The translations under genes and the position numbers were made by a program. A model generated the notes under the pieces. That model had not been told where the DNA came from. It saw nothing but the letters and a program-made list of their open reading frames with translations, and did no database searches. A DNA stretch of 64,000 nt from Eledone cirrhosa (Eukaryota), in NCBI GenBank assembly GCA_964016885.1, contig OZ024745.1:24614001-24678000 (forward strand). Reading direction: 5' to 3'. Positions 3,379 to 57,330 of this stretch are shown piece by piece (the first letter of the stretch is position 1; every line of letters begins with the position of its first letter).

Positions 3379-3384
<6 letters not shown>

Positions 3385-4047
3385 AGGTTAAGAATAACGT
3401 CCTCGAAATTGAAAGTGGATTTTTTGACAAGTGAATGTGTTTGTTTTTTTTTTTACAATGAAATTTACGATACACTCTTTGTTTATTTACAACAGGTCTC
3501 TATAGTGATATGGTGTTAATTAGTATTGCGTGTGTGAGTATTTTCTCTTATATATATATATGTGTGGGTGTGTATATGTGTGTATATATATGTGTGTCTG
3601 TATGTATATATATATGTGTGTTTGTATATATATATGTGTGTTTGTGTCATCATCATCGTTTAGATGTTTTTGTAATATCTTGCCAAAGTTGGCACCAACT
3701 ATAAACAAATTAAGGCCGGGTCATAAGAAGGACAGAAAATGATAAGGGATTTGGGTAAAAATATCTAAACGATGATGATGATACAAACACATATATATAT
3801 GCAAACACACATATATATATATACATATACAGACACACATATATATACACACATATACACACCCTCACATATATATATATAAGAGAAAATAATCACACAC
3901 GCAATACTCATTAACACCATACCACTATAGAGACCTGTTGTAAATAAACAAAGAGTGTATCGTAAATTTCTTTGTAAAAAAAAAAAAAACACATTCACTT
4001 GTCAAAAAATCCACTTTCAATTTCGAGGACGTTATTCTTAACCTATG

Positions 4048-4049
<2 letters not shown>
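3379..4049. repeat. Long inverted repeat (arms of about 290 bp) between (TA)n tracts
   Basis: 3379-3671 is the reverse complement of about 3757-4049. Confidence 0.9.
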
Positions 4050-4114
<65 letters not shown>

Positions 4115-4162
4115 TAAGAGAGTAAAACAAAGAATCCTTTAATACATCAAAAGTTTTTATTA

Positions 4163-4200
4163 GCCGACAATGTTTCGTCCTATTAAGGACTCATCAGGGC
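4163..4200 (-). ncRNA. Minimal type I hammerhead ribozyme (inverted copy)
   Basis: Exact reverse complement of 4306-4343. Confidence 0.88.
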
Positions 4201-4305
4201 AATCAAAACAACAAGAAGTAATATCGGCAGATACAAGCCGGAAGCTCCGAAGAATATGGAGTGTACATACACTAAAGTCTTGCAAAAATATATGATAATA
4301 AAGAT

Positions 4306-4343
4306 GCCCTGATGAGTCCTTAATAGGACGAAACATTGTCGGC
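4306..4343 (+). ncRNA. Minimal type I hammerhead ribozyme
   Basis: GCC-CUGAUGA-GUCCU/UAAU/AGGAC-GAA-ACAUUGU-C-GGC: canonical core and GUC site. Confidence 0.88.
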
Positions 4344-4607
4344 TAATAAAAACGTTTGATGTATTAAAGGATTCTTTGTTTTACTCTTAATTTTTTGGCT
4401 CTGTTTAACTGCATTGAGCTATACCTTTTGCTGTCATTTCTATAATACGAAGAGGGTGTTTAACTCCAACACGCTCCAGTATTCTAATCCTTATATATAT
4501 ATATATATATATATATTAATATAGATGAGATTCTACAGGACTAGAAGTGTTTCATTCTATATTAAAACTTTTATACTCTGCTATGTATTGAGTACCTTAA
4601 CTTACCT

Positions 4608-7455: not shown

Positions 7456-10400
7456 CTACAGAACAATGTAGAGAGAAGGCCCATTTACACGGGCCATTCT
7501 CGCTTCTTTCACCCACCTTTCATAAAACTGTCTGGGGCCAAGCACTTCTCTCTCCATCCTGATCCTTCTTCCGAAGTGGTATCGGAAGAAGTAAACCAGG
7601 TGATGGCCGGAGAGAAAGTCACCCGACCTCAGACCTTTCAGGCGCGTCCACCACACAACCTCTTTCATCATGGCTATTACGCACAGAAAGACCGCCTCTG
7701 CTTCATTTCTGAAGGAAGGAGGCGGCTTGATGTTCACCACAGACTCGGCGGTTAATCGAATCGGCGCCACACGCGACAGCAGTCGTTCGACGTAGCCCCA
7801 CAGATCGGCAACGCCCGGGCAGTGTACCAGTGCATGCGCAACGGTTTCCTCGTCGCGCACGCATCTGGGACAGATCTTTTTCGCGGGATCCCTGCCCGGG
7901 CGCCCGTATCTGTAGAGCTTTTCTCGAACGGGCAGAGCCCCCCGGTAACCCTGCCAGGCTAGGGACCTCTGGAAGTTGTCCATGGGTCCCGGGCCGAAAG
8001 TTCTACCGAACAGGCTGGCCAGTTCGTCCTCCTCCATGCCTAGCGACTCTGCAAGGGTGTCGTCTCCCTTGCTAGCCACCAACCCTCTATAGAATGTCGA
8101 GGTGGATTCTCCACTGATAGTCGGGTCCGCTTGCCAGATAGCCGTGAGCGCCTGGGCACACTCGGTGTGCCAGTTGCCCAGTTTTCTCGGTCTTTGCTTC
8201 ACCCAGGATTGCAGTTCGGTGAGCGAGACGAGCTGTGGGAAGGCTCGCCTCACAAACGGGGCCCACACCGGTTGACCGTTGAGGAATACCTGTAGATGCC
8301 GTAGCCTCAATGCGTGCCTACGCATCAACAGCCACGGCATACCCAGCCCTCCTTTCGAAGGGTGCTGGCAGCAGATGGATCTCCTCACCATGGGAGGCTG
8401 CTTCTTCCAGAGGAACTGGAAGAGCATGCGTTCCATGATGGTGAACTTTTCCTTGGGGCAAGGCACGACGGTCAGGCGGTAGTAGATGACGGACGCTATG
8501 TAAGCGTTCGTCACCTCCGCCCGACCTTTCAGTGATAGTTTGCACTTGGCCCACTTCTGGGTCAGCGCAAACACCCTGCTCGTCACCTCGCCCCAATTCT
8601 TCTCCACCTGGAGGTCCGGTCCGAACCAGACCCCGAGCAGCTTCACCGGGCCCTCCGTCCACCGCCCGACGACACCGTCTAACGGCATCGGTTTGCCCCT
8701 CCACGTTCCGAGTTGCAAACCGACTGACTTGTCCTGGTTCAGCTTAGCCCCCGTCAGCCTTTCGTATTCCTCCAGTAGGGTGGCGATCGCCCCGATTTCC
8801 GAGGCGTCCGCCACCATTACTGTTACGTCGTCGGCATAGGCCGAGACCGCTTTGTGCAATCCCGGTTCCAGGGGTATGCCCCGCAGCAACTCCAACTTCC
8901 GCAGCAGTGGCTCGAGAGTCAATACGTACAGAAGGGAGGAGAGGGGGCACCCCTGTCTGATGGACCGGGTGATTTGAAACGGCTCCGAGAGGTAGCCGTT
9001 TACTTTAATCCTAGAGTAGATGTTGCCACTGTGCATGGCAGAAATCCAGCCCCTGAAAACGGGTCCGAATCCCGCCGCCGCTAGCACCGCATCCAGGTAA
9101 CCATGGTCGACCCTATCGAACGCCTTAGATTGATCCAAGTTGATCAGGGCCCCACCAAAGCCGAGTTCGTTGCCAACCCTCTCTACGATGTATCGCATGA
9201 GGTGGAGGTTGTCGTGAATGGACCTGGACGGGATAGCGCATGTCTGCGCGTCTCCCACCAAACCACCCACCACAAGCGCCAACCTCTTCGCCAACACCTT
9301 GGCCAAAATCTGTAACTCTGCATTTAGCAGAGTTATGGGCCTAACGTTACTTAAGTCGTCCCCTTTGCTCTCGTCCTTCCTCTCTAGCGTGACCACGCCC
9401 TTGGTCACAGAACAGGGAATTCTCCCGTTCTGTTGCCAGTTGCAATAGATAACCTCGAGGAGTTCGGAGAACAAGACCGGCATAGCTAAATAAAGTTCGT
9501 ATGGTAGACCATCGAGACCCGGGGATTTGCGTCTGCTGCATTGGCTGAGCGCTTCCCCGATTTCAGTGGCTGTGATTGGCCTTTCGCAGCACTCCGCTTC
9601 GCCGAAAGACGCGGTAGACCGTCGAGGTATGGACCGAAGTCCACATCCCCGCCCGGCCCCCCGCCCCCTCCGAACAGTCGAGCAAAGTGCCTTTGAAAGG
9701 CCTCGCACATCCGCTCAGGTTCAAGGATCACCCGTCCATCCTGGTCTCGCAAAGATCGAATGGTGGATTTAATCCCACTCTTGGCTTCTGTCACGCGGGC
9801 CCAGCTAACAGCTTTGGTCCCCTCGTTTCCTAAAGCACGTATTTTACTTCGGACAACGCAGCCTTCGTGCTTCGCGTCAAAGAACTGGCTCAACGCCGTT
9901 CTCGCCGCTAACACTCTGGCCACGTCTCCGCTCCTAATCGCCTCTTCTAGTTTATCTGTTAACTCCCTTTCCTCCCTATTTCTATTTGCCGCTAGTTCCT
10001 TACTGTAACCTATCGAACTTACTCTAATCTCTCTCTTTAGAGATACCCACCACCTGCTGTTGACGATCGCTCCCGTCAACCGCATCTTAACTAAGCTACT
10101 AATCCGGTTCCTGTAATCTTTCTTTGCCGGCAAGGACAAGTTCATCTTCCAGTAACCGGGACCCTGTCTATGCGTTCTATCAAGGTTGACCACGCAGGTC
10201 ACTAATTTGTGATCTGAATAGCCAACCATGATCAGTTCTGGACAACTAAATACGTCCCTATCCTTACTCCTAACCAAAAACCTATCTAGGTACGATCTAG
10301 ATTGTCCACTGCGGTTTGCCCAGGTCCAGGTTGGCGCAGTTGGACAATCTAGTCGAAATCTATCGACCAGGTCGAATCGATCGAGTAACCCCTTGAGGCT

Positions 10401-10883
10401 GCTACACCCCCCTCTATCGGGACATGCCCCTGCATACTCCCAACGCGCATCTAGGATTCCATTCCAGTCCCCCACTAAAAGCAGGGAACGCGACGTTCCT
10501 AGAAAAGTCTCCAGACGCTGGAAGAAGTCGGCTCTTTCCGCCCCGAAGGGAGCATAAAGACCGACCAGTCTGAAAGCCCCGCCTTCACCGCCTCCGACGT
10601 CCAGCACCAGTAATCGACCCCCCGGGTCCGAGTGAACAATCTGTACGTCGAGAGTCAGACGTTTATCCAGCAGTACGGCAACTCCCCCCCCCCCACCTCC
10701 GGGTTGACAGAGAGATGCGTGCATCTTAAAGTCATCGAAGGCGGGCGCCAGCTGTCTCACGCTGCTGATCCGACTCTCGCAAACAACCATCACATCTATA
10801 CTTTGTGACCTGAGGTCATTTAGAAGCTTTGCTTGCTTCCAAGCTGAGCCCAGGCCACGCGCGTTCAAACAGCCAACTCTCAA
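7456..10883 (-). pseudogene. LINE ORF2: APE endonuclease + reverse transcriptase, one frameshift near 9600
   Basis: APE motifs LNARG, GDWN, SYLDRF, YSDH. RT motifs KSPGLDG, RPITLLN, DQSKAFDRV, QGCPLS, AYADD. C-terminal CPRC..ETVAHALVHC. Confidence 0.95.
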
Positions 10884-10888
10884 TTGAT

Positions 10889-12728
10889 CTATTTTGGTGT
10901 TGAAAGTGAAGAAAGAAAAGCACCTACCTCTCCGGGTTGTGTAATTTCCATGGCATCAGGTGTGTTGGGTGGAGGGATGTTTTGTGGTGGTGTGGGGGTA
11001 TCCGTGTGTGGTGGGGTTGGGGTATTTGGAGTTGTGTCAGGGAGAGGGGCGGTTATGGGGAAATCTTTCAAGAGGACGCGATTTAATGGTTTTAAACAGG
11101 GGGGGCTCACGTCCCGTCTAAATTGTTCTTTTAAGGAACGATAAAGGTCCAGAGGGACCTTTATCATTTTTAAATGGGTGAAGTTCTCTGTTGAGATAAA
11201 GTTTGGCCCTTCGGTCTGCACCATAGGGTTATTGCTTATTAATTTAACCAGTTTTTTGTTTTCTTTATTTATATATGTGTATTGCAACATCTTTTTTTGT
11301 GATGCTGTCAATGTTTCGGAGAGGGGAGGCGCAGATTTATTTTTGTTTGTTGAGGGTGGGGTGTTTTTGATTGGAGTTGGTGTTTGTGTGTGGGTTATTT
11401 GTGGTGTGCTGGGTGTGTGTTTTCTTTTTTTTCTTTTAACTTGTCTGAAGGCTTCTCCTCCTTCTTCTTCAGAAGTTGGGGGAAACTCTTCAGCGCTAGG
11501 TGGGAGGGACGTGTTGTGTGGTTGTTTTTTTTTTGCGGGAGGGGTAGATTTGTTACTGTTTTTTTTATTATTTGTTTGGAATGGGTTTTGTGGTGGTGGT
11601 GGTGGTGGTGGTGGTAATGTTTGTGTCGTGCTTGTGGTTGGTGATGGTGATGTTTGTATTGTGGTTGGTGGTGGTGATTTTTGTGTCGTGCTTGTGTTTG
11701 GTGCTGGTGGTGGTGATGTTTGTGTTGTGTTTGTGGTTGGTGGTGTCTGTATTTTGTTTGCTGTGTGTGGTATTAGTGTATTTTTGGAGGTGGGTGGTGT
11801 TGGTGTACTGTTTGTGGTGGGTGTGGGCAATAGTCCTTTTTGGGGGATACGTTTCGGGCAGTTAGCCTTAACGTGTCCCCTTTCCATGCATAAATAGCAT
11901 GCTGGTCTTCTCCCCTCTACAATTATGTCTATTGGGGTAAGGTCATCCAGCCAGATGCGATCCGGGATTTGTGCTATTCTTTCGGGCCTCATTTGGACTA
12001 GTATGTCGAGGCCCATTCCCAGGAACGCATCTCCAGTTGCCTTCCCCATTGACAGCATTGTGTCTTCGCCCATGTCTATGAAGCCAGCAATAGCCCACCA
12101 GAAGTCCATTGTGGGCAGCATTGTTTTTACTTTTACTCTCTGTGTTCTTCTACCCATGTAGGAGGGATAGAAGCTGTATGTTGTCGATGAGAGTGGGCTT
12201 AGGGAAAGCTTCTCCGCCGTTTCCTTGTCTTTTGTTAAGACCGAAATGCTGCCATAGAGTCGGTCCTTTCGTATGAAGAGAATATTCTTCATATAGTCTT
12301 TTAGGACCAACTCTATTTCCATTTGGCTGGGCTGTGCTGGCTTTCTTGTCTGGTTCAGTATAGTTCTGAAGAGAACTGTGCTCTCTGTTCTGGCTTTCTT
12401 GAATTCTGGGGGGGGAGTTAATGGAAAACATTCTGTTCTCCCCCAAGACTATTTGTTTTTTCGCTTCGGCCAGTTTTTCTCTGGCGGCAGTTAAGTCAAT
12501 TGGTGTGTATATTATGGATTGTTTTGTTTTCTGGGCGAAAGTTGCCCTGTTGTTATTTGTATTATTTTCTGTTTGTTTGTTTTCCGTTTGCTCATTTTCC
12601 TTAACATTTGTTTTTTCATTTTCCTTGTTTGTTTCGTTGTCTAATTTTGTTGTAATTATTTTTTGTTCTTCAGACTTGGGGTGCGTGGCAGAGCTAATGG
12701 CAGACATGTCTGCCATCTTTTCCGCCAT
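10889..12728 (-). pseudogene. LINE ORF1 (gag-like nucleic-acid-binding protein, zinc knuckle), split by one frameshift
   Basis: CYLCMERGHVKANC is CX2CX4HX4C, followed by a Pro/Thr-rich tail. ORFs 12150..12755 and 10889..12322 join (…NSPPEFKKARTES…QMEIEL) if the G8 run at 12408-12415 is read as G7. Confidence 0.85.
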
Positions 12729-16560: not shown

Positions 16561-16766
16561 CTGAATGTCTGACCCTTTATTTCAAACTTTCAACCAGTCT
16601 GTGTCAATATACGAGGGTCGCTTGAAATGTCCACTTTCACTTCTTTCTTTTAAAGACAGCAGCAGTATTGTAATTTATGGAAACCTATCCCAGACAGAAT
16701 TGTTTGCCATGGGAGCTACAAATGTAAGGACCCCCTTGAGTGGCACATGGTCTAGTTGTAGCATTG

Positions 16767-17732
16767 GATGATAGGGGATCACCCTTAGCGACACAGGGTC
16801 TTGCTATACCACAGGATGATAGGGGACCGTCCTGAGCGACATATGTTCGATGGACACCAAAGGGTGATAGGGGACCGTACTGAGCGACATATGGTCTATG
16901 GACACCACATGATGATAGGGGACCGCCCTCAGCGACACAGGGTCTTGCTACACCATAGGATGTTAGGGTACCGCCCTCAGCGACACAGGGTCTTGCTACA
17001 CCACAGGATGATAGGGGACCGTCCTGAGCGACACAGGGTCTTGCTACACCATAGGATGTTAGGGGACCGTCGTGAGCGACATATGGTCTTGCTACACCAC
17101 AGGATGATAGGGTACCGCCCTCAGCGACACAGGGTCTTGCTACACCACAGGATGATAGGGTACCGCCCTGAGCGACAGAGGGTCTTGCTACACCACAGGA
17201 TGTTAGGGGACCGTCCTGAGCGACACAGGGTCTTGCTACACCACAGGATGATAGGGTACCGCCCTGAGCGACAGAGGGTCTTGCTACACCACAGGATGTT
17301 AGGGGACCGTCCTGAGCGACACAGGGTCTTGCTACACCACAGGATGATAGGGGACCGTCGTGAGAGACACATAGTCTTGCTACACCACAGGATGATAGGG
17401 TACCGTCCTGAGCGACACAGGGTTTACTACACCACAGGATGATAAGGGACCTTCCTGAGCGAAACAGGGTCTTGCTACAACGCAGGATGATAGGGGACCG
17501 TCCTCAGCGACAGAGGGTCTTGCTACACCACAGGATGTTAGGGTACCGTCCTGAGCGACATATGGTCTTGCTACACCACAGGATGATAGGGAGCGTCCTG
17601 AGCGACATATGGTCTTGCTACACCACAGGATGATAGGGAGCGTCCTGAGCGACATATGGTCTTGCTACACCACAGGATGTTAGGGGACCGCCCTGAGCGA
17701 CACAGGGTCTTGCTACACCACAGGATGATAGG
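16767..17732 (+). repeat. 48-bp minisatellite, about 20 copies
   Basis: Unit GGATGATAGGGGACCGTCCTGAGCGACACAGGGTCTTGCTACACCACA. Confidence 0.95.
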
Positions 17733-17973
17733 GTATGTTTTGAGATGGAATTGGATATGATATCTTGAGGTATGAGAGACCACATATACGTTTTCAATAT
17801 GTCGTATACGTGTGTGTGTCCTGGGATGAGTGGGTGTGTATAGACAGAGACACACATATATATATACATATATGGAATATTTAATATAGAAATTGCTTCA
17901 ACAGGACGAGAACTGTTTCATTCGAAGGAAACAGTTCTAGTCCTGTAGAAGCCATTTCTATATTAAATACTTT

Positions 17974-18553: not shown

Positions 18554-18779
<226 letters not shown>

Positions 18780-18899
18780 CGTAACTGTCTTTATCCCATT
18801 GCAGAAACTAATTAGTTGGAGTGATAATTTAAGTAAGTAAGTTAATTTTTTTTTTTTTTATTTTTTTATTTTCTTATTTTACGTCTTTTATATATATAA

Positions 18900-19139: not shown

Positions 19140-19797
19140 TTTCTCTTTCTCTTAATTTCGAGTATATTTTTTTGACCGGCCACCTTCCTGGTGGCAAGGT
19201 TGTAAAAGAAAAGAAATTGTCATCCCTTGAATCGCAAGAATGTTTTGCATATTTTGAAGGTGCCAGCTATCGCAGCCATTTGTAGACTATGAATTAGGGA
19301 GCTGCGCTTTTTGTCCGCAAATCCAAGTTCGGTCATACTTTGGTCCAAGCGGGTTGGTATATAACCCGTAGCACCAATAATGATGGGTATGAAGCTAAAG
19401 GTGTATCTTGGATACTGGATTTGTAAGCTCCTCATCAATGGTCCGTAGATGTCCTCCTTCTCCTGTATTTTTCTGACAACGTTTACATCAAGTGGGCAGC
19501 TGATCTCCACAACAGAACACGTTTTCAATGTGTGGTCCCAAACTACAATATCAGGCCGGTTGTGCTTTAATTTGGTGGCAGTTTTTATTTTCAGGTTCCA
19601 CCAGTATTCCTTAGTGCCATCTGTCTCAATATATTCTTCCTCGTTTGTTGTTAATTTTGTTTTCCGAATTGCGTTCCAGATAGTTCTAGCTATCCCATCG
19701 TGTCTCATGGGGAGGTAGTAGCGAGATGACATTCTTTCGCAGCTGGCAACAATGTGGCTTACATCCTCGATCTTTGTTTTACATAGCCTACATTTAT
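19140..19797 (-). mobile_element. R4/Dong-like non-LTR retrotransposon 3' fragment (zinc finger + restriction-like endonuclease)
   Basis: CRLC..EDVSHIVASC, MRHD, NRPDIVVWD, VEISCP, IIIGATG in ORF 19220..20008. Abuts a (TACA)n tract. Confidence 0.85.
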
Positions 19798-19799
19798 TG

Positions 19800-19831
<32 letters not shown>

Positions 19832-19879
19832 TGTATGTATGTATGTATGTATGTATGTATGTATGTTAAGAGAGTGGGA

Positions 19880-20770
19880 CTGGCTTTGTGCAGTGCCTTT
19901 GCTCACTGTAAATGGTTCACGACACAGGCATTGTTTTATATCTGGTGATCTCTCTGCACTTGTCGTCACATGGTACCATAGGCCCAGCACTATGTCAATA
20001 ATTGTCACAAGTGTAGTATTTGTACCAGAGTTTTCAAGTCACTGGCTGGACTAAAAGTCACACTCGTTCAGCGCATCGGTAGGAGTTCTCCTACATGGAT
20101 ATAAAGTATATGGCCGTACTCGAAAACGAGTTGGCAGCCACCATGTATGTCTGTATGTATGTATGCATGTATGTGTGTATGTGTGTATGTATGCGTCTAT
20201 GTGTGTATGTATGTATGTGTATATGTGTGTATGTGTCTGTGTGTATGTGTGTATGTATGTATGTATATGTGTGTGTATGTATGTATGTATGTGTGTATGT
20301 GTGTATGTATGTGTGTATGTATGCGTCTGCACAAGCCAGTCCCACTCTCTTAACCAAGATGATATTTACCAAAAAGAAGAACAAGTCAACATCATTGGAT
20401 ACCATCAGAGTTGCAGGTATTATATCAGAGTTTTCCTTCTCCTAGAATTCTGCCTTGACAAAGGCTAAGGGGTCATCTCTCCCGGTGATTTTGGATGGCC
20501 ATTGACTCTTTGTGCAGTGCCTTTGCTCACTATAAAAGCTTCACGGCACAGGCATTGCTTTATATCTGGAGATCTCTCTGCACTTGTCATCACATGGTAC
20601 CATGGGCCCAGCACTATGTGTCAATAATTGTCACAAGTGTAGTATTTGTACCAGAGTTTTCAAGTCGCTGGCTGGACTAAAAAGTCACTCGTTCAGCGCA
20701 TAGGTAGGGGTTCTCCTACATGGATATAAAGTAGTGGCCGTACTCGAAAACGAGTTGGCAGCCACCATGT
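19880..20770. repeat. Duplicated 260-bp segment separated by (TATG)n, with a short inverted junction
   Basis: 19880-20145 is similar to 20505-20770. 20330-20355 is the reverse complement of 19865-19890. Confidence 0.8.
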
Positions 20771-24497: not shown

Positions 24498-26270
24498 TTC
24501 TATTTATTTGCCACCAGGGCATCAAAGATTGGGACAAATACAAAGGGGGGAGTTTACATACATTTAAAAAGACGTGTAAAAAACATATAACAAATTAAAT
24601 TTAACAATCGATGTCCTCAATAGGGAGGGGCGTTGACATGGGTCGCACACACCCCCGAAAAAATGTGCAACCCTCCTCTTCAGGAGCACAAAGAGCGGGT
24701 GCTTCCTTCCTCTTCTCATTCTTCTCCTCTCTCATCTACAGGCTGATATAGAGAGAAGGCCCATTCACTCGGGCCATTCTCGCTACTTTCACCCATCTTT
24801 CATAAAACTTGCTGGGGTAGAGCACCTCTCTCTCCATTCTGATCCTTCTTCTAAAGTGGTACTTGAAAAAAAAGACCAGTTGTTGGCCGGAGAGAAAGGT
24901 GTCTGACCTCAGCCCTTTCAACCTTGTCCACCATACAACTTCTTTCGCCATGGCTATCACACAGAGAAAAACCGCCTCTCCTTCGTTTTTGAAAGGGGGA
25001 GGCGGTTTGATTGTGACAATGTTCTCGGTGGTCAACCGGATTGGTCCCACCCGCGACAGTAGTCGTTCTACATAGCCCCACAGGTCAGCAACGCCCGGGC
25101 AGTGTACGAATGCGTGTGCGACGGTTTCCTCGTCACGCACGCATCTTGGACAGATCTTCTTCGAGGGGTCCCTACCCGGGCGCCCGTGTCTGTAGAGCTT
25201 GTCCCGAACGGGTAGAGCTCCTCGGTAACATTGCCAAGCCAGGGACTTTTGGAAGTTGTCCCTCGGTCCCGGGCCAAACGTCCTACCGAACAGACTGGCC
25301 AGCTCGTCTTCCTCCATGCCCAGAGCCTCTCCGAGAGCGTCGTCGCACTTACTGCGCACCAACCCTCTATAGAATGTTGAGGTTGAGTCTCCTCTGATTG
25401 CCGGATCCGCTTGCCAGAGGGCCGTGAGCGCCTGGGCACATTCAATGTGCCAGTCGCCCACTTTTCTCGGTCTTTGCTTGACCCAGGATTGCAGCTCGGT
25501 GAGTGAGACGAGTCTCGGAAAGGCTCGCCTCACAAACAGGGCCCACACCGGCTGACCGGTGAGGAATACCTGGAGGTGCCGTAGCCTTAATGCGTGTCTA
25601 CGCATCGTCAGCCACGGCATCCCCAGCCCTCCGTTCGAAGGGTGTTGACAGCAGATGGATCTTCTCACCAAAGGAGCCCGCTTCTTCCAAAGAAATCGGA
25701 AGAGCGCGCGCTCCATTTTGGCGAGTGTTTTCTCTGGGCAAGGCAGGACGGTCAAGCGGTAGTAGATGACGGACGCTATATAAGCGTTCGCCACCTCCGC
25801 TCGACCTTTCAAGGATAGTTTGCACTCGGCCCACTTCTGGGCGAGTGCAAACACCTTGCCCGTTACCTCGTCCCAGTTTTTCTCCACCTGGAGGTCCGGT
25901 CCGAACCAGACCCCGAGCAGCTTCACCGGTCCCTCCGTCCAGCGTCCGACGATGCCGTCGGAGGTCATCGTTTTGCCCTTCCACGTCCCGAGTTGCAAAC
26001 CGACGGACTTGTCCCGGTTCAGCTTGGCTCCTGTGAACCTTTCATATTCCTCCAGTAAGGTGCCGATCTGCCCGATTTCCGAGGCGCACGACACCATTAC
26101 TGTCACGTCATCGGCGTAGGCCGACACCGCTTTCCGCAATCCCGGTTCCAAGGGGATGCCCTGCAACAGCTCCAGCTTCCGCAGTAGTGGCTCGAGAGCC
26201 AGCACATACAGGAGGGCATCCCTGTCGAATGGATCGCGTGATTTGGAACGGCTCCGAGAGGTAGCCGTTC
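24498..26270 (-). mobile_element. 5'-truncated Tx1-type LINE copy (3' half of RT to 3'UTR)
   Basis: The 489-aa ORF 24736..26205 is closely similar to 7456..9708 (AYADD, CPRC..HAFVHC) and has the same 3' terminus. Confidence 0.95.
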
Positions 26271-26799
26271 CAAATCACGCGATCCATTCGAGGGACGTAA
26301 CTATGCTGGAAAGCATGGCGTCCGACCCTCTACTGATACTGCCAATCCACGCCCTTGATGCTTATTAATATAGAGGGGGGATTAGAAGAGAGTTACGTGT
26401 ATTAGATATAGAGAGGAGGAGAGTTTGGTGCTAATAGATATAGAGAGATACACTCTCAAATTCATAAGTGTATGTGTGTGTAAGGTGTGTGTATATACGT
26501 GTGTATGTGTAAGAAAGTGTGTGGGGGAGGCGTGTCTAGTAAAATATAGTCGAAATAAATTGAAAATAGATAACTCGAATAATTTTGATATGGCAATTTT
26601 TTTTAATTGTTATATCAAAGATAATTGCAATAAATTAATATAGTTGATTAATGTAGCTGTGTAAATAAATAATATAACTTAATATATGAAAATATTAATA
26701 AGCTACAAGGTTCTGACAAAGATTCCCACTATAAAATGTCAACATATTACTAGTAATTAAGAAAATGAAAAATAATCATTTCCCTTCTTTGAATGATAA

Positions 26800-42879: not shown

Positions 42880-45010
42880 TCTATATATTAATACGCTAAT
42901 ACCTAAGTACCGTACGTCCGACCGTGTCACACTTTCAGTAATATATATATTAATACGCTAATACCTAAGTACCGTACGTCCGACCGTGTGTGTCACACTT
43001 TCAGTACTATATATATTAATACGCTAATACCTAAGTACCGTACGTCCGACCGTGTCACACTTTCAGTACTATATATATTAATACGCTAATACCTAAGTAC
43101 CGTACGTCCGACCGTGTCACACTTTCAGTACTATATATATTAATACGCTAATACCTACGTACCGTACGTCCGACCGTGTGTGTCACACTTTCAGTACTAT
43201 ATATATTAATACGCTAATACCTAAGTACCGTACGTCCGACCGTGTCACACTTTCAGTACTATATATATTAATACGCTAATACCTAAGTACCGTACGTCCG
43301 ACCGTGTCACACTTTCAGTACTATATATATTAATACGCTAATACCTAAGTACCGTACGTCCGACCGTGTCACACTTTCAGTACTATATATATTAATACGC
43401 TAATACCTAAGTACCGTACGTCCGACCGTGTCACACTTTCAGTACTATATATATTAATACGCTAATACCTAAGTACCGTACGTCCGACCGTGTCACACTT
43501 TCAGTACTATATATATTAATACGCTAATACCTACGTACCGTACGTCCGACCGTGTCACACTTTCAGTACTATATATATTAATACGCTAATACCTACGTAC
43601 CGTACGTCCGACCGTGTGTGTCACACTTTCAGTACTATATATATTAATACGCTAATACCTAAGTACCGTACGTCCGACCGTGTGTGTCACACTTTCAGTA
43701 CTATATATATTAATACGCTAATACCTAAGTACCGTACGTCCGACCGTGTCACACTTTCAGTACTATATATATTAATACGCTAATACCTAAGTACCGTACG
43801 TCCGACCGTGTCACACTTTCAGTACTATATATATTAATACGCTAATACCTAAGTACCGTACGTCCGACCGTGTGTGTCACACTTTCAGTACTATATATAT
43901 TAATACGCTAATACCTAAGTACCGTACGTCCGACCGTGTCACACTTTCAGTACTATATATATTAATACGCTAATACCTACGTACCGTACGTCCGACCGTG
44001 TGTGTCACACTTTCAGTACTATATATATTAATACGCTAATACCTAAGTACCGTACGTCCGACCGTGTCACACTTTCAGTACTATATATATTAATACGCTA
44101 ATACCTAAGTACCGTACGTCCGACCGTGTCACACTTTCAGTACTATATATATTAATACGCTAATACCTAAGTACCGTACGTCCGACCGTGTCACACTTTC
44201 AGTACTATATATATTAATACGCTAATACCTACGTACCGTACGTCCGACCGTGTCACACTTTCAGTACTATATATATTAATACGCTAATACCTAAGTACCG
44301 TACGTCCGACCGTGTCACACTTTCAGTACTATATATATTAATACGCTAATACCTACGTACCGTACGTCCGACCGTGTCACACTTTCAGTACTATATATAT
44401 TAATACGCTAATACCTAAGTACCGTACGTCCGACCGTGTCACACTTTCAGTACTATATATATTAATACGCTAATACCTAAGTACCGTACGTCCGACCGTG
44501 TCACACTTTCAGTACTATATATATTAATACGCTAATACCTACGTACCGTACGTCCGACCGTGTCACACTTTCAGTACTATATATATTAATACGCTAATAC
44601 CTACGTACCGTACGTCCGACCGTGTCACACTTTCAGTACTATATATATTAATACGCTAATACCTACGTACCGTACGTCCGACCGTGTCACACTTTCAGTA
44701 CTATATATATTAATACGCTAATACCTACGTACCGTACGTCCGACCGTGTCACACTTTCAGTACTATATATATTAATACGCTAATACCTACGTACCGTACG
44801 TCCGACCGTGTCACACTTTCAGTACTATATATATTAATACGCTAATACCTACGTACCGTACGTCCGACCGTGTCACACTTTCAGTACTATATATATTAAT
44901 ACGCTAATACCTACGTACCGTACGTCCGACCGTGTCACACTTTCAGTACTATATATATTAATACGCTAATACCTACGTACCGTACGTCCGACCGTGTCAC
45001 ACTTTCAGTA
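42880..45010 (+). repeat. Tandem array of 62-bp units (some 66 bp), about 34 copies
   Basis: Unit TATATATATTAATACGCTAATACCTA(A/C)GTACCGTACGTCCGACCGTGT(GTGT)CACACTTTCAGTAC, with no spacers. Confidence 0.97.
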
Positions 45011-45325
45011 ATATAAATCAAAGTCGAATGACGTCAGTGAGACGTGCTAAAACAATGGAAGGGGGGTGGTAGACAATCTACGAAAATCTACGGCGAAAGA
45101 AAATCAAAGAGCGTTGCAACTTTTGGAAAGGAAAGAGAGAAGGGGTTATATAATATATTTAGAGAGAGGGGTTTATAATTTAGAGAAAGGGATGGGTTAT
45201 TATATATATAGAGAAGGGGGTTATAATATATATAGAGAGAGGGGGTTATACTATATTTAAAGAGAGGGGTGTTATAATATATAGAGAGGGGAGTTATCTC
45301 TCTCAACACCGGGTTATTCAGCTAG
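42880..45325 (+). mobile_element. Non-autonomous Helitron containing a tandem array
   Basis: Starts A|TCTATATATTAATAC and ends ...CAACACCGGGTTATTCAGCTAG|T (5'TC, 3'CTAG, AT target, no TSD). Inserted into the (TTA)n tail of a SINE. Confidence 0.8.
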
Positions 45326-47832: not shown

Positions 47833-48395
<563 letters not shown>

Positions 48396-48905: not shown

Positions 48906-48954
48906 AATTTTGCTAAACAAATTCAGAAACGATATATATATATATATATATATA

Positions 48955-49357
48955 TAGATAATTTAATATATCAACTAACATAAGCGCACAGATGCACGCC
49001 TATGCCAGCAAATACATAGGTTATGTCATAGTACCTAGGTGGTTCAATGCAGGAGGATGCAGAACAATAATATAAAAGACGTAAAATAAGAAAATCTCTT
49101 TCAAAAATTTTTTGGAATTATTATTAATACCGAATTATTATTATTTTTATATGAGCCGCCAGTGTCCGCGCATTGCCTGGAGACTCAGCTGAGAATAGAC
49201 TCCCTGATGACGCAATGAATTCTCGACAGTTAGATTACGTAACTGTCTTTATCCCATTGCAGAAACTAATTAGTTGGAGTGAAAATTTAAGTAAGTAAGT
49301 AAAAAATTTTTAAAAAAAATTTTTTGAAAGAGATTTTCTTATTTTACGTCTTTTATA

Positions 49358-49365
<8 letters not shown>
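48955..49365. mobile_element. Inverted partial copy of the 557-bp hammerhead unit (ribozyme 49199-49280, plus)
   Basis: Sequence matches the 50081-52266 array. A smaller fragment lies at 18779-18892. Confidence 0.85.
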
Positions 49366-50080: not shown

Positions 50081-50081
<1 letters not shown>

Positions 50082-52266
50082 AATATAGATAATTTAATAT
50101 ATCAACTAACATAAGCGCACAGATGCACGCCCATGCCAGCAAATACACAGGTTATGTCATAGTACCTAGGTGGTTCAATGCAGGAGAATGCAGAACAATA
50201 ATATAAAGGACGTAAAATAAGAAAATATTTTTTTTTTAAAATTTAAAAAAAATGTTTTTCTTACTTAAATTTTCACTCCAACTAATTAGTTTCTGCAATG
50301 GGATAAAGACAGTTACGTAATACAACTGTCGAGAATTCATTGCGTCATCAGGGAGTCTATTCTCAGTTAAGTCTCCAGGCAATGCGCGGACACTGGCGGC
50401 TCATATAAAAATAATAATAATTCGGTAGATCGAACAGCTTGCGAGGACTGGATTCTATGTACCGAAATTCTCACTGCTTCAAGTCAAATGGCCGATTCTA
50501 AAGAATCAATCACGTGACACAGAGGCTAGTTAGAAGGAATGGGATGGTAAGATGACTGACGCCTACTAACACCCCAAAAAAAATTTTTTTAGAAGTGGTT
50601 TTGACAAGTTTGCTGGACAAATCAGTGATTTGGAGATAAATATAGATAATTTAATATATCAACTAACATAAGCGCACAGATGCACGCCCATGCCAGCAAA
50701 TACACAGGTTATGTCATAGTACCTAGGTGGTTCAATGCAGGAGAATGCAGAACAATAATATAAAGGACGTAAAATAAGAAAATATTTTTTTTTTTAAATT
50801 TAAAAAAAATTTTTTTCTTACTTAAATTTTCACTCCAACTAATTAGTTTCTGCAATGGGATAAAGACAGTTACGTAATCCAACTGTCGAGAATTCATTGC
50901 GTCATCAGGGAGTCTATTCTCAGTTAAGTCTCCAGGCAATGCGCGGACACTGGCGGCTCATATAAAAATAATAATAATTCGGTAGATCGAACAGCTTGCG
51001 AGGACTGGATTCTATGTACCGAAATTCTCACTGCTTCAAGTCAAATGGCCGATTCTAAAGAATCAATCACGTGACACAGAGGCTAGTTAGAAGGAATGGG
51101 ATGGTAAGATGACTGACGCCTACTAACACCCCAAAAAAAATTTTTTTAGAAGTGGTTTTGACAAGTTTGCTCGACAAATCAGTGATTTGGAGATAAATAT
51201 AGATAATTTAATATATCAACTAACATAAGCGCACAGATGCACGCCCATGCCAGCAAATACACAGGTTATGTCATAGTACCTAGGTGGTTCAATGCAGGAG
51301 AATGCAGAACAATAATATAAAGGACGTAAAATAAGAAAATATTTTTTTAAAAAAATTTAAAAAAAATTTTTTTCTTACTTAAATTTTCACTCCAACTAAT
51401 TAGTTTCTGCAATGGGATAAAGACAGTTACGTAATCCAACTGTCGAGAATTCATTGCGTCATCAGGGAGTCTATTCTCAGTTAAGTCTCCAGGCAATGCG
51501 CGGACACTGGCGGCTCATATAAAAATAATTAACTGAGACTTAACTGAGAATAGACTCCCTGATGACGCAATGAATTCTCGACAGTTGGATTACGTAACTG
51601 TCTTTATCCCATTGCAGAAACTAATTAGTTGGAGTGAAAATTTAAGTAAGAAAAAAAATTTTTTTAAATTTTAAAAAAAAAATATTTTCTTATTTTACGT
51701 CCTTTATATTATTGTTCTGCATTCTCCTGCATTGAACCACCTAGGTACTATGACATAACCTGTGTATTTGCTGGCATGGGCGTGCATCTGTGCGCTTATG
51801 TTAGTTGATATATTAAATTATCTATATTTATCTCCAAATCACTGATTTGTCGAGCAAACTTGTCAAAACCACTTCTAAAAAAATTTTTTTTGGGGTGTTA
51901 GTAGGCGTCAGTCATCTTACCATCCCATTCCTTCTAACTAGCCTCTGTGTCACGTGATTGATTCTTTAGAATCGGCCATTTGACTTGAAGCAGTGAGAAT
52001 TTCGGTACATAGAATCCAGTCCTCGCAAGCTGTTCGATCTACCGAATTATTATTATTTTTATATGAGCCGCCAGTGTCCGCGCATTGCCTGGAGACTTAA
52101 CTGAGAATAGACTCCCTGATGACGCAATGAATTCTCGACAGTTGGATTACGTAACTGTCTTTATCCCATTGCAGAAACTAATTAGTTGGAGTGAAAATTT
52201 AAGTAAGAAAAAAAATTTTTTTAAATTTTTTTAAAAAAATATTTTCTTATTTTACGTCCTTTATAT
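50081..52266. mobile_element. Tandem + inverted array of a 557-bp unit, each unit with a hammerhead ribozyme (retrozyme / Penelope pLTR-like)
   Basis: Unit starts at 50081, 50638 and 51195, with an inversion at about 51531. Hammerheads at 50275-50356, 50832-50913, 51389-51470 (minus) and 51554-51635, 52111-52192 (plus). Confidence 0.88.
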
Positions 52267-56786: not shown

Positions 56787-56857
56787 TATTTTATTATGCG
56801 CATTTCAAAAACAAATATCATCATGGGATGATATCTGCGTTCTCATCAGATAAAATA
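56787..56857 (-). ncRNA. Type I hammerhead ribozyme
   Basis: Perfect 8-bp stem I UAUUUUAU/AUAAAAUA, core CUGAUGA, 16-bp stem II with one mismatch, GAA, palindromic AUGCGCAU, AUA site. Confidence 0.85.
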
Positions 56858-56983: not shown

Positions 56984-57064
<81 letters not shown>

Positions 57065-57286
57065 TTAAAGCAAACATCACGGGGGCTCTATCTCAAAATT
57101 ATTTTTGAAGAGCATTAGAAATGCGCAACCGGTAAAAACTTAAAATTAAAACTGAATACTAACCAATACTTATTACTAATTTTTACTTATTCCTAATTAA
57201 ACTATTTTTCACTGGGAACAATTTGTCAGCATTTTCTTTTCCTTTTACCAATATATCACAACTCGTGTGTTACACCTCTATTCTTT

Positions 57287-57330
<44 letters not shown>

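Follow-up and report, generated by a model that had tools for sequence, protein, structure and literature searches.

The question raised by this locus is how hammerhead ribozyme units without coding capacity came to be arranged in tandem on both strands of one short stretch of DNA, and which enzyme placed them there. The window, by which we mean the whole 64,000-nucleotide stretch of Eledone cirrhosa DNA that was analysed, contains five such ribozymes between positions 50081 and 52266. We conclude that the array is an insertion of a young, abundant, non-coding non-LTR retrozyme, i.e. of a non-autonomous Penelope-like element (PLE). Its tandem and inverted parts are a single insertion with two fixed reverse-transcription start sites, both away from the cut site, a point overlooked in the preliminary description of the sequence. 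This class of element is already in print; the insertion rule, one end at a site S and one at a site T, is the added and testable part. The reading we favour, with a probability of about 0.7, is that of a non-coding hammerhead repeat family in (TA)n which is likely inserted by a borrowed PLE reverse transcriptase/GIY-YIG endonuclease. This enzyme would copy a single RNA, probably a circle of 557 nt, into the two ends of a DNA break, starting at two different sites.

Layout of the array

The features of the locus are given below, unit position 1 being the first base past the predicted cut.

50081..52266, left arm minus, right arm plus: the array, 557-bp tandem units, one insertion
50081..51529, minus: left arm of 2.6 units, whose outer (3') end adjoins (TA)n at site T (about 201-205 in unit numbering from the cut) and whose inner end falls at unit position 422
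50275..50356, minus: hammerhead 1, type I; cut predicted at 50280/50279
50832..50913, minus: hammerhead 2, type I; cut predicted at 50837/50836
51389..51470, minus: hammerhead 3, type I; cut predicted at 51394/51393
51530..51534, no strand: head-to-head junction, 5 extra bases repeating sequence from the start of the right arm
51535..52266, plus: right arm of 1.3 units, whose inner end falls at unit position 462 and whose outer (3') end adjoins (TA)n at site S (79 in unit numbering)
51554..51635, plus: hammerhead 4, type I; cut predicted at 51630/51631
51631..52187, plus: full cut-to-cut monomer, 557 nt, 36% G+C, longest ATG frame 34 codons
51761..51809, plus: long hairpin directly before site T, retained, with changes, in three subfamilies
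52111..52192, plus: hammerhead 5, type I; cut predicted at 52187/52188
48952..49362: another insertion with two arms, of small size; the minus arm (from 48952 to around 49101) terminates at T, and the plus arm (49128-49362), with a full hammerhead at 49199-49280, terminates at S
18778..18893, plus: 5'-truncated copy in (TA)n with 84% identity, comprising the hammerhead's 3' half and the sequence up to site S, without CUGAUGA

The near-identical 557-bp units and the five hammerheads, of which three are minus-strand and two plus-strand, are confirmed as first described: units 50081-50637 and 50638-51194 share 99.3% identity, the third (51195-51529) is partial, and the predicted cut sites GUU^GGAGU are spaced by 557 nt within the array. 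Two dispersed copies had also been claimed. The one at 48952-49362 does contain a full hammerhead, whereas that at 18778-18893 retains only the 3' half. The monomer folds better than shuffled sequence (z -3.7), and the long hairpin before T is a candidate protein-binding signal. The five extra bases at the junction are what end-joining would leave.

The ribozyme and its conservation

The core, the 5-bp stem I, the 6-bp stem II with its inner hairpin and the 10-nt palindrome are all present in the unit, and the ribozyme motif, the hairpin, the C·A pair and the GUU triplet are as the preliminary description gave them. The features of a type I hammerhead are found together: the CUGANGA and GAAA core, an NUH cut site, stems I to III and covariation. 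The palindrome (stem III) is not stable as a lone hairpin, and its predicted duplex of two copies reaches -9.0 kcal/mol; stability in the two-copy form only fits the double-hammerhead model (PMC4209133).

In an alignment of 12 rows, three of the six pairs of stem II and two of the seven pairs of the inner hairpin are changed on both sides, counts which represent about three lineages. Paired cells amount to 91.9%, against 31-46% in slid controls, and the score was reached by none of 500 shuffles; MAFFT misplaced one gap in subfamily C. The covariation across genomic copies that had been named as a check on the ribozyme is thus found in both helices. All 12 rows, across subfamilies, agree in the core, the C·A pair and GUU, and the mismatch and the triplet, first listed as caveats, are on this alignment conserved features rather than decay. 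The Rfam search recommended with Hammerhead_1 gave no match for the unit: its hammerhead was not scored and falls outside that family as the 45-position model defines it, probably because of the 51-nt stem II region, which the model does not take.

An abundant family without an open reading frame

The genome searched (2.996 Gb) gave at least 169 matches to the unit, on many contigs, with 40 of 320 candidates scored, and the full-length matches are 97-100% identical. The 22-base cut-site motif of the ribozyme has 9,169 exact matches over all subfamilies and its backwards control has none. Because of this excess and of the spread over many contigs, the array is neither a product of chance nor the assembly artefact against which the preliminary description had cautioned. 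Pieces of the unit or of its relatives also occur in contigs of two sequencing runs labelled as other organisms.

The longest arms of family A insertions reach 15 units. A sister subfamily B (about 535 nt) is 75-76% identical to the unit, and a subfamily C (about 525 nt) about 70%. The retrozyme features of dispersal, mobility and a G+C content below 50% are found in the unit; tandem hammerhead units without an ORF, together with PLE-type ends, support the retrozyme-like, PLE-linked reading proposed at the outset.

One S end and one T end

All 100 arms of 63 family A insertions, chosen by best score and not at random, have their outer end either at S (about 79 nt past the cut) or at T (about 201). 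These outer ends nearly always adjoin (TA)n, in which a target-site duplication cannot be read, and the inner ends are scattered. Each of the two sites is preceded by a predicted hairpin. Every one of the 37 two-armed insertions has one S end and one T end, an outcome whose chance would be about 3e-12 if the arms chose independently; the 26 single-armed insertions comprise 15 T and 11 S. A positional sample gave S+T in eight of ten head-to-head insertions, the other two being unclassified. The same combination prevails in the sister subfamilies, which are older, with 16 S+T (14 distinct), one S+S and three unclassified among 20 two-armed rows of B, and 12 S+T, one S+S and six unclassified (one of them T+T-like) among 19 of C. 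Our literature searches found no published count of this rule, although supplements or subscription papers may hold one.

Two fixed 3' ends, 5' truncation, an inverted arm and a microsatellite target are thus all found, as in a non-autonomous PLE. Where the arms meet, many junctions overlap by a few bases and others carry short inserted or repeated pieces. At the junction of one locus (L114, 3861-3933), a short stretch of unit sequence recurs four to five times as a stutter, which suggests repeated re-priming while the arms join.

The template

In 29 of 32 loci the two arms of the insertion match at four common markers; permuted pairs match in 11.7 loci on average and in 19 at most. Across the arrays, 19 substitutions are fixed in all covering units (eight of them seen on both arms), 16 are partial and 62 are singletons. 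For a substitution to be fixed throughout an array, the array must have expanded from a single monomer, which is what rolling-circle copying would produce, and these variants therefore lend indirect support to what may have been copying around a monomer circle.

An uncut template is the alternative that survives best, although we hold it to be unlikely. The family and the helper would be the same, and the template would be a linear read-through transcript of a donor array, the ribozyme being weak or later-acting and circles rare or absent. Such a template would account for a two-unit period in the arrays: a unit resembles the next but one more closely than its direct neighbour (p 0.003; 0.01 when locus L105 is left out), a pattern that a pure monomer circle cannot give, and at L105 two unit types strictly alternate on both arms. 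The period could come from dimer templates or from later two-unit duplications. Uncut RNA is, moreover, the main substrate of the Anolis PLE (PMC11167929), and the inner ends are enriched at unit positions 1-56, just past the cut (21 of 84 arms, p 7e-5). This enrichment fits run-off at a cut 5' end, but also stalling at an A/U hairpin or A/T microhomology. Against the linear template stand the new variants fixed in all units of long arrays, which need re-expansion from one monomer, the length of up to 15 units, and the lack of a general in-register sharing of unit-specific variants between arms (2 shared, 1.85 expected).

Copying of a mixed multimer in register by both arms was considered in its own right and is unsupported overall, L105, L106 and L107 being single cases. 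Locus L151 was also considered as a copy of an arm of L112; it is without the L112 variants, and the long matches stop within the array.

A candidate helper

The preliminary description had stated that a unit attached to a PLE ORF would be reclassified as an ordinary pLTR. No PLE ORF is continuous with the unit at any of 180 loci; 14 of them had a PLE protein match, none of which continues from the unit by position and strand, and no reclassification follows. The matches at L048, L059, L204 and L208, considered as homology to a partner, are read as separate insertions.

The genome holds 10,596 GIY-YIG candidates, of which 150 were scored, and about seven PLE families were sampled. One of them, F1, is an autonomous, Neptune-like PLE with RVT_1 and GIY-YIG matches and a CX4CXXC linker. 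Its best 150 matches are 98-100% identical in protein, many with 775-residue frames, and F1 is, judged by this identity, a young family. Its copies terminate in (TA)n at either of two sites, which lie 76 and 142 nt beyond the cut of the F1 hammerhead. Of 19 opposite-strand pairs in 26 regions, called from end positions within 10 kb, 18 are S+T. Since its ORF begins directly after T, the layout of the retrozyme equals that of F1 minus the ORF. No sequence common to the unit and the sampled PLE families was found in 20 loci, 40 GIY-YIG regions and 20 F1 regions, so that the partner is assigned by architecture alone. By analogy of layout, we infer that the helper would be a Neptune-like family, with F1 as the best candidate.

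The PLE-type ends, inversion and target would equally be expected if the unit were the pseudo-LTR or the 3' end of an autonomous PLE that lies outside the sampled part (about seven families, 150 of 10,596 candidates) and has escaped detection, the arrays being its truncated copies. This we regard as improbable: every inner end remains within the 557-nt repeat, the PLE protein matches at 14 of 180 loci do not continue from the unit, and the entire ORF-less unit is retained in three subfamilies that are only 70-76% alike.

Other elements in the window and in the genome

Several further elements were observed. Another hammerhead family forms an inverted pair in (TA)n at window positions 4111-4490; one of its arms extends about 100 nt beyond the end of the other, which resembles the S+T rule. 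Within it, 4159-4203 (minus) scores 31.7 bits with Rfam Hammerhead_1, for which the cut-off is 34. At 47975-48380 and 57055-57290 lie truncated 3' ends, with a variant hammerhead core, of a Neptune-like family that is also present in L057, L062 and L065; the former is an inverted pair in which one end is short and the other long. A further hammerhead with a long stem II and a palindromic stem III is found at 56790-56855 (minus), and also in L056 and L062. Other tandem hammerhead repeats of about 460-510 nt occur at L052:7700-8230, L061:8568-9600, L198, L207 and L070, and the genome seems to hold many retrozyme-like families.

A palindromic insertion in (TA)n at 3380-4050 has an identical end on both arms, unlike the S+T elements. 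LINE-like frames (endonuclease and reverse transcriptase, with an upstream frame) are present at 7456-12448 and 24736-26274 (minus), judged by the look of their translations. The 272-residue frame at 19220-20038 (minus) gave no Pfam match; from a motif, we take it to resemble the C-terminal end of a restriction-like-endonuclease retroelement. Minisatellites are found at 42882-45015 (62 bp x 34, 97% matches) and at 16766-17733 (48 bp x 20).

Proposed mechanism

The model we propose begins with a multimeric transcript. Its cleavage at GUU would follow, probably by a double hammerhead formed by way of the 10-nt palindrome. The cut monomer RNA would then be ligated into a circle by a host ligase. 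Two enzyme copies on one RNA would cut both strands of (TA)n, and priming would take place at S by one copy and at T by the other. Synthesis of each cDNA would pass over the ligated cut site and continue for a number of units that varies. End-joining would then link the two cDNAs head to head.

Parts of this scheme have counterparts in published work. The Anolis PLE protein cleaves and extends both strands, is predicted to be a dimer, and uses two internal RNA start sites that define the tail (PMC11167929); a PLE tail is often present at one end only (PMC8557442, PMC3846280). The template would usually be a monomer circle, and this step is the weaker part of the model because in the Anolis work the start sites did not differ by strand, and most of the in vitro reaction used uncut RNA as substrate (PMC11167929). 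Of the Xenopus retrozyme dimers, eight of nine failed to cleave in vitro (bioRxiv 10.64898/2026.07.22.740005).

The second arm might also arise without a second priming event, by fold-back or self-priming of the first and subsequent trimming by the endonuclease. Self-priming has been proposed for PLEs (PMC3846280), as has a tail from EN-mediated resolution (PMC8557442), and the variants common to both arms would be explained. We nevertheless find this quite improbable. Either arm can be the longer one (T in 21 two-armed insertions, S in 16), which fold-back from one fixed start does not predict. The inner ends are scattered, the junction is without a palindrome and no inner-anchored sharing of variants is seen; nor does fold-back give a reason for the second end always being the other site. 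Amplification and spread of a satellite at the DNA level, with the ribozyme motif as a passenger, could yield the two-unit period by local duplication or conversion but is hardly credible, being already contradicted by marks of retrotransposition, namely fixed 3' ends, variable 5' ends, differing flanks and a fresh inversion at each locus.

Could the two-start reaction proposed for the retrozyme be that of PLEs in general? PLE integration would then be a two-ended reaction on one RNA, in which a dimeric reverse transcriptase/endonuclease primes both ends of a double-strand break, one protomer per fixed site and both round the same circular template. We advance this tentatively, at slightly less than even odds. 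If so, a single mechanism would account for the inverted repeats of PLEs, their one-sided tail and the retrozyme arrays, and the 557-nt RNA would be a compact natural test substrate. The one-S-one-T rule and the variants common to the arms make a sharp prediction for in vitro work, and bear on which enzyme moves animal retrozymes and on how the tandem and inverted insertions of PLEs arise. A complete Neptune-type insertion signature without an ORF ties the retrozyme to the PLE machinery by mechanism, beyond co-occurrence.

Comparison with known systems

The non-autonomous PLEs of Chlamys (MRC1) resemble our element in being non-autonomous and in their multicopy head-to-tail insertions (PMC8557442). 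Their 3' end generally resembles that of an autonomous family, whereas no such resemblance was found here to the families sampled, and they are described as mostly without canonical hammerheads, unlike the present element (PMC8557442).

With metazoan non-LTR retrozymes the element shares non-coding tandem units, a type I hammerhead in each and a G+C content below 50% (PMC7229834; bioRxiv 10.64898/2026.07.22.740005). These retrozymes co-exist with PLEs, by which they are proposed to be mobilised (PMC7229834; bioRxiv 10.64898/2026.07.22.740005), and both points apply to the element described here; the preprint calls them non-autonomous PLEs (bioRxiv 10.64898/2026.07.22.740005). At 557 nt, the unit is above the 150-450 bp of PMC7229834 and within the 51-972 bp of bioRxiv 10.64898/2026.07.22.740005. 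It differs from published retrozymes in its PLE-like ribozyme, whose stem II region measures 51 nt and whose palindrome measures 10 nt, and whereas expression and circles have been demonstrated for them, the circle of the present element is a predicted one. A look-up of terms in the main texts of PMC7229834 and bioRxiv 10.64898/2026.07.22.740005 found no mention of inverted arms, of two fixed ends or tails, or of (TA)n targeting.

The ribozyme itself is close to the minimal hammerheads of PLE pseudo-LTRs, with which it shares a 5-bp stem I, an extra base after A9, a G10.1-C11.1 pair, a palindromic stem III region and the dimer model (PMC4209133). Its stem II is far longer than theirs and branched, with the inner hairpin, and an A faces the extra C (PMC4209133).

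Neptune-clade PLEs bearing an endonuclease share with the element partial tandems, an inverted 5'-truncated copy and a microsatellite target, as well as a tail that is often one-sided, two internal reverse-transcription start sites and a hammerhead upstream of the ends (PMC8557442, PMC3846280, PMC11167929). The element, in contrast, is without an ORF, its two sites are 122 nt apart as against 30-40 in theirs, and both of its arms can span many units. To the accounts given in the Neptune-clade papers, the present analysis adds a count of the one-S-one-T rule and the common source of the two arms.
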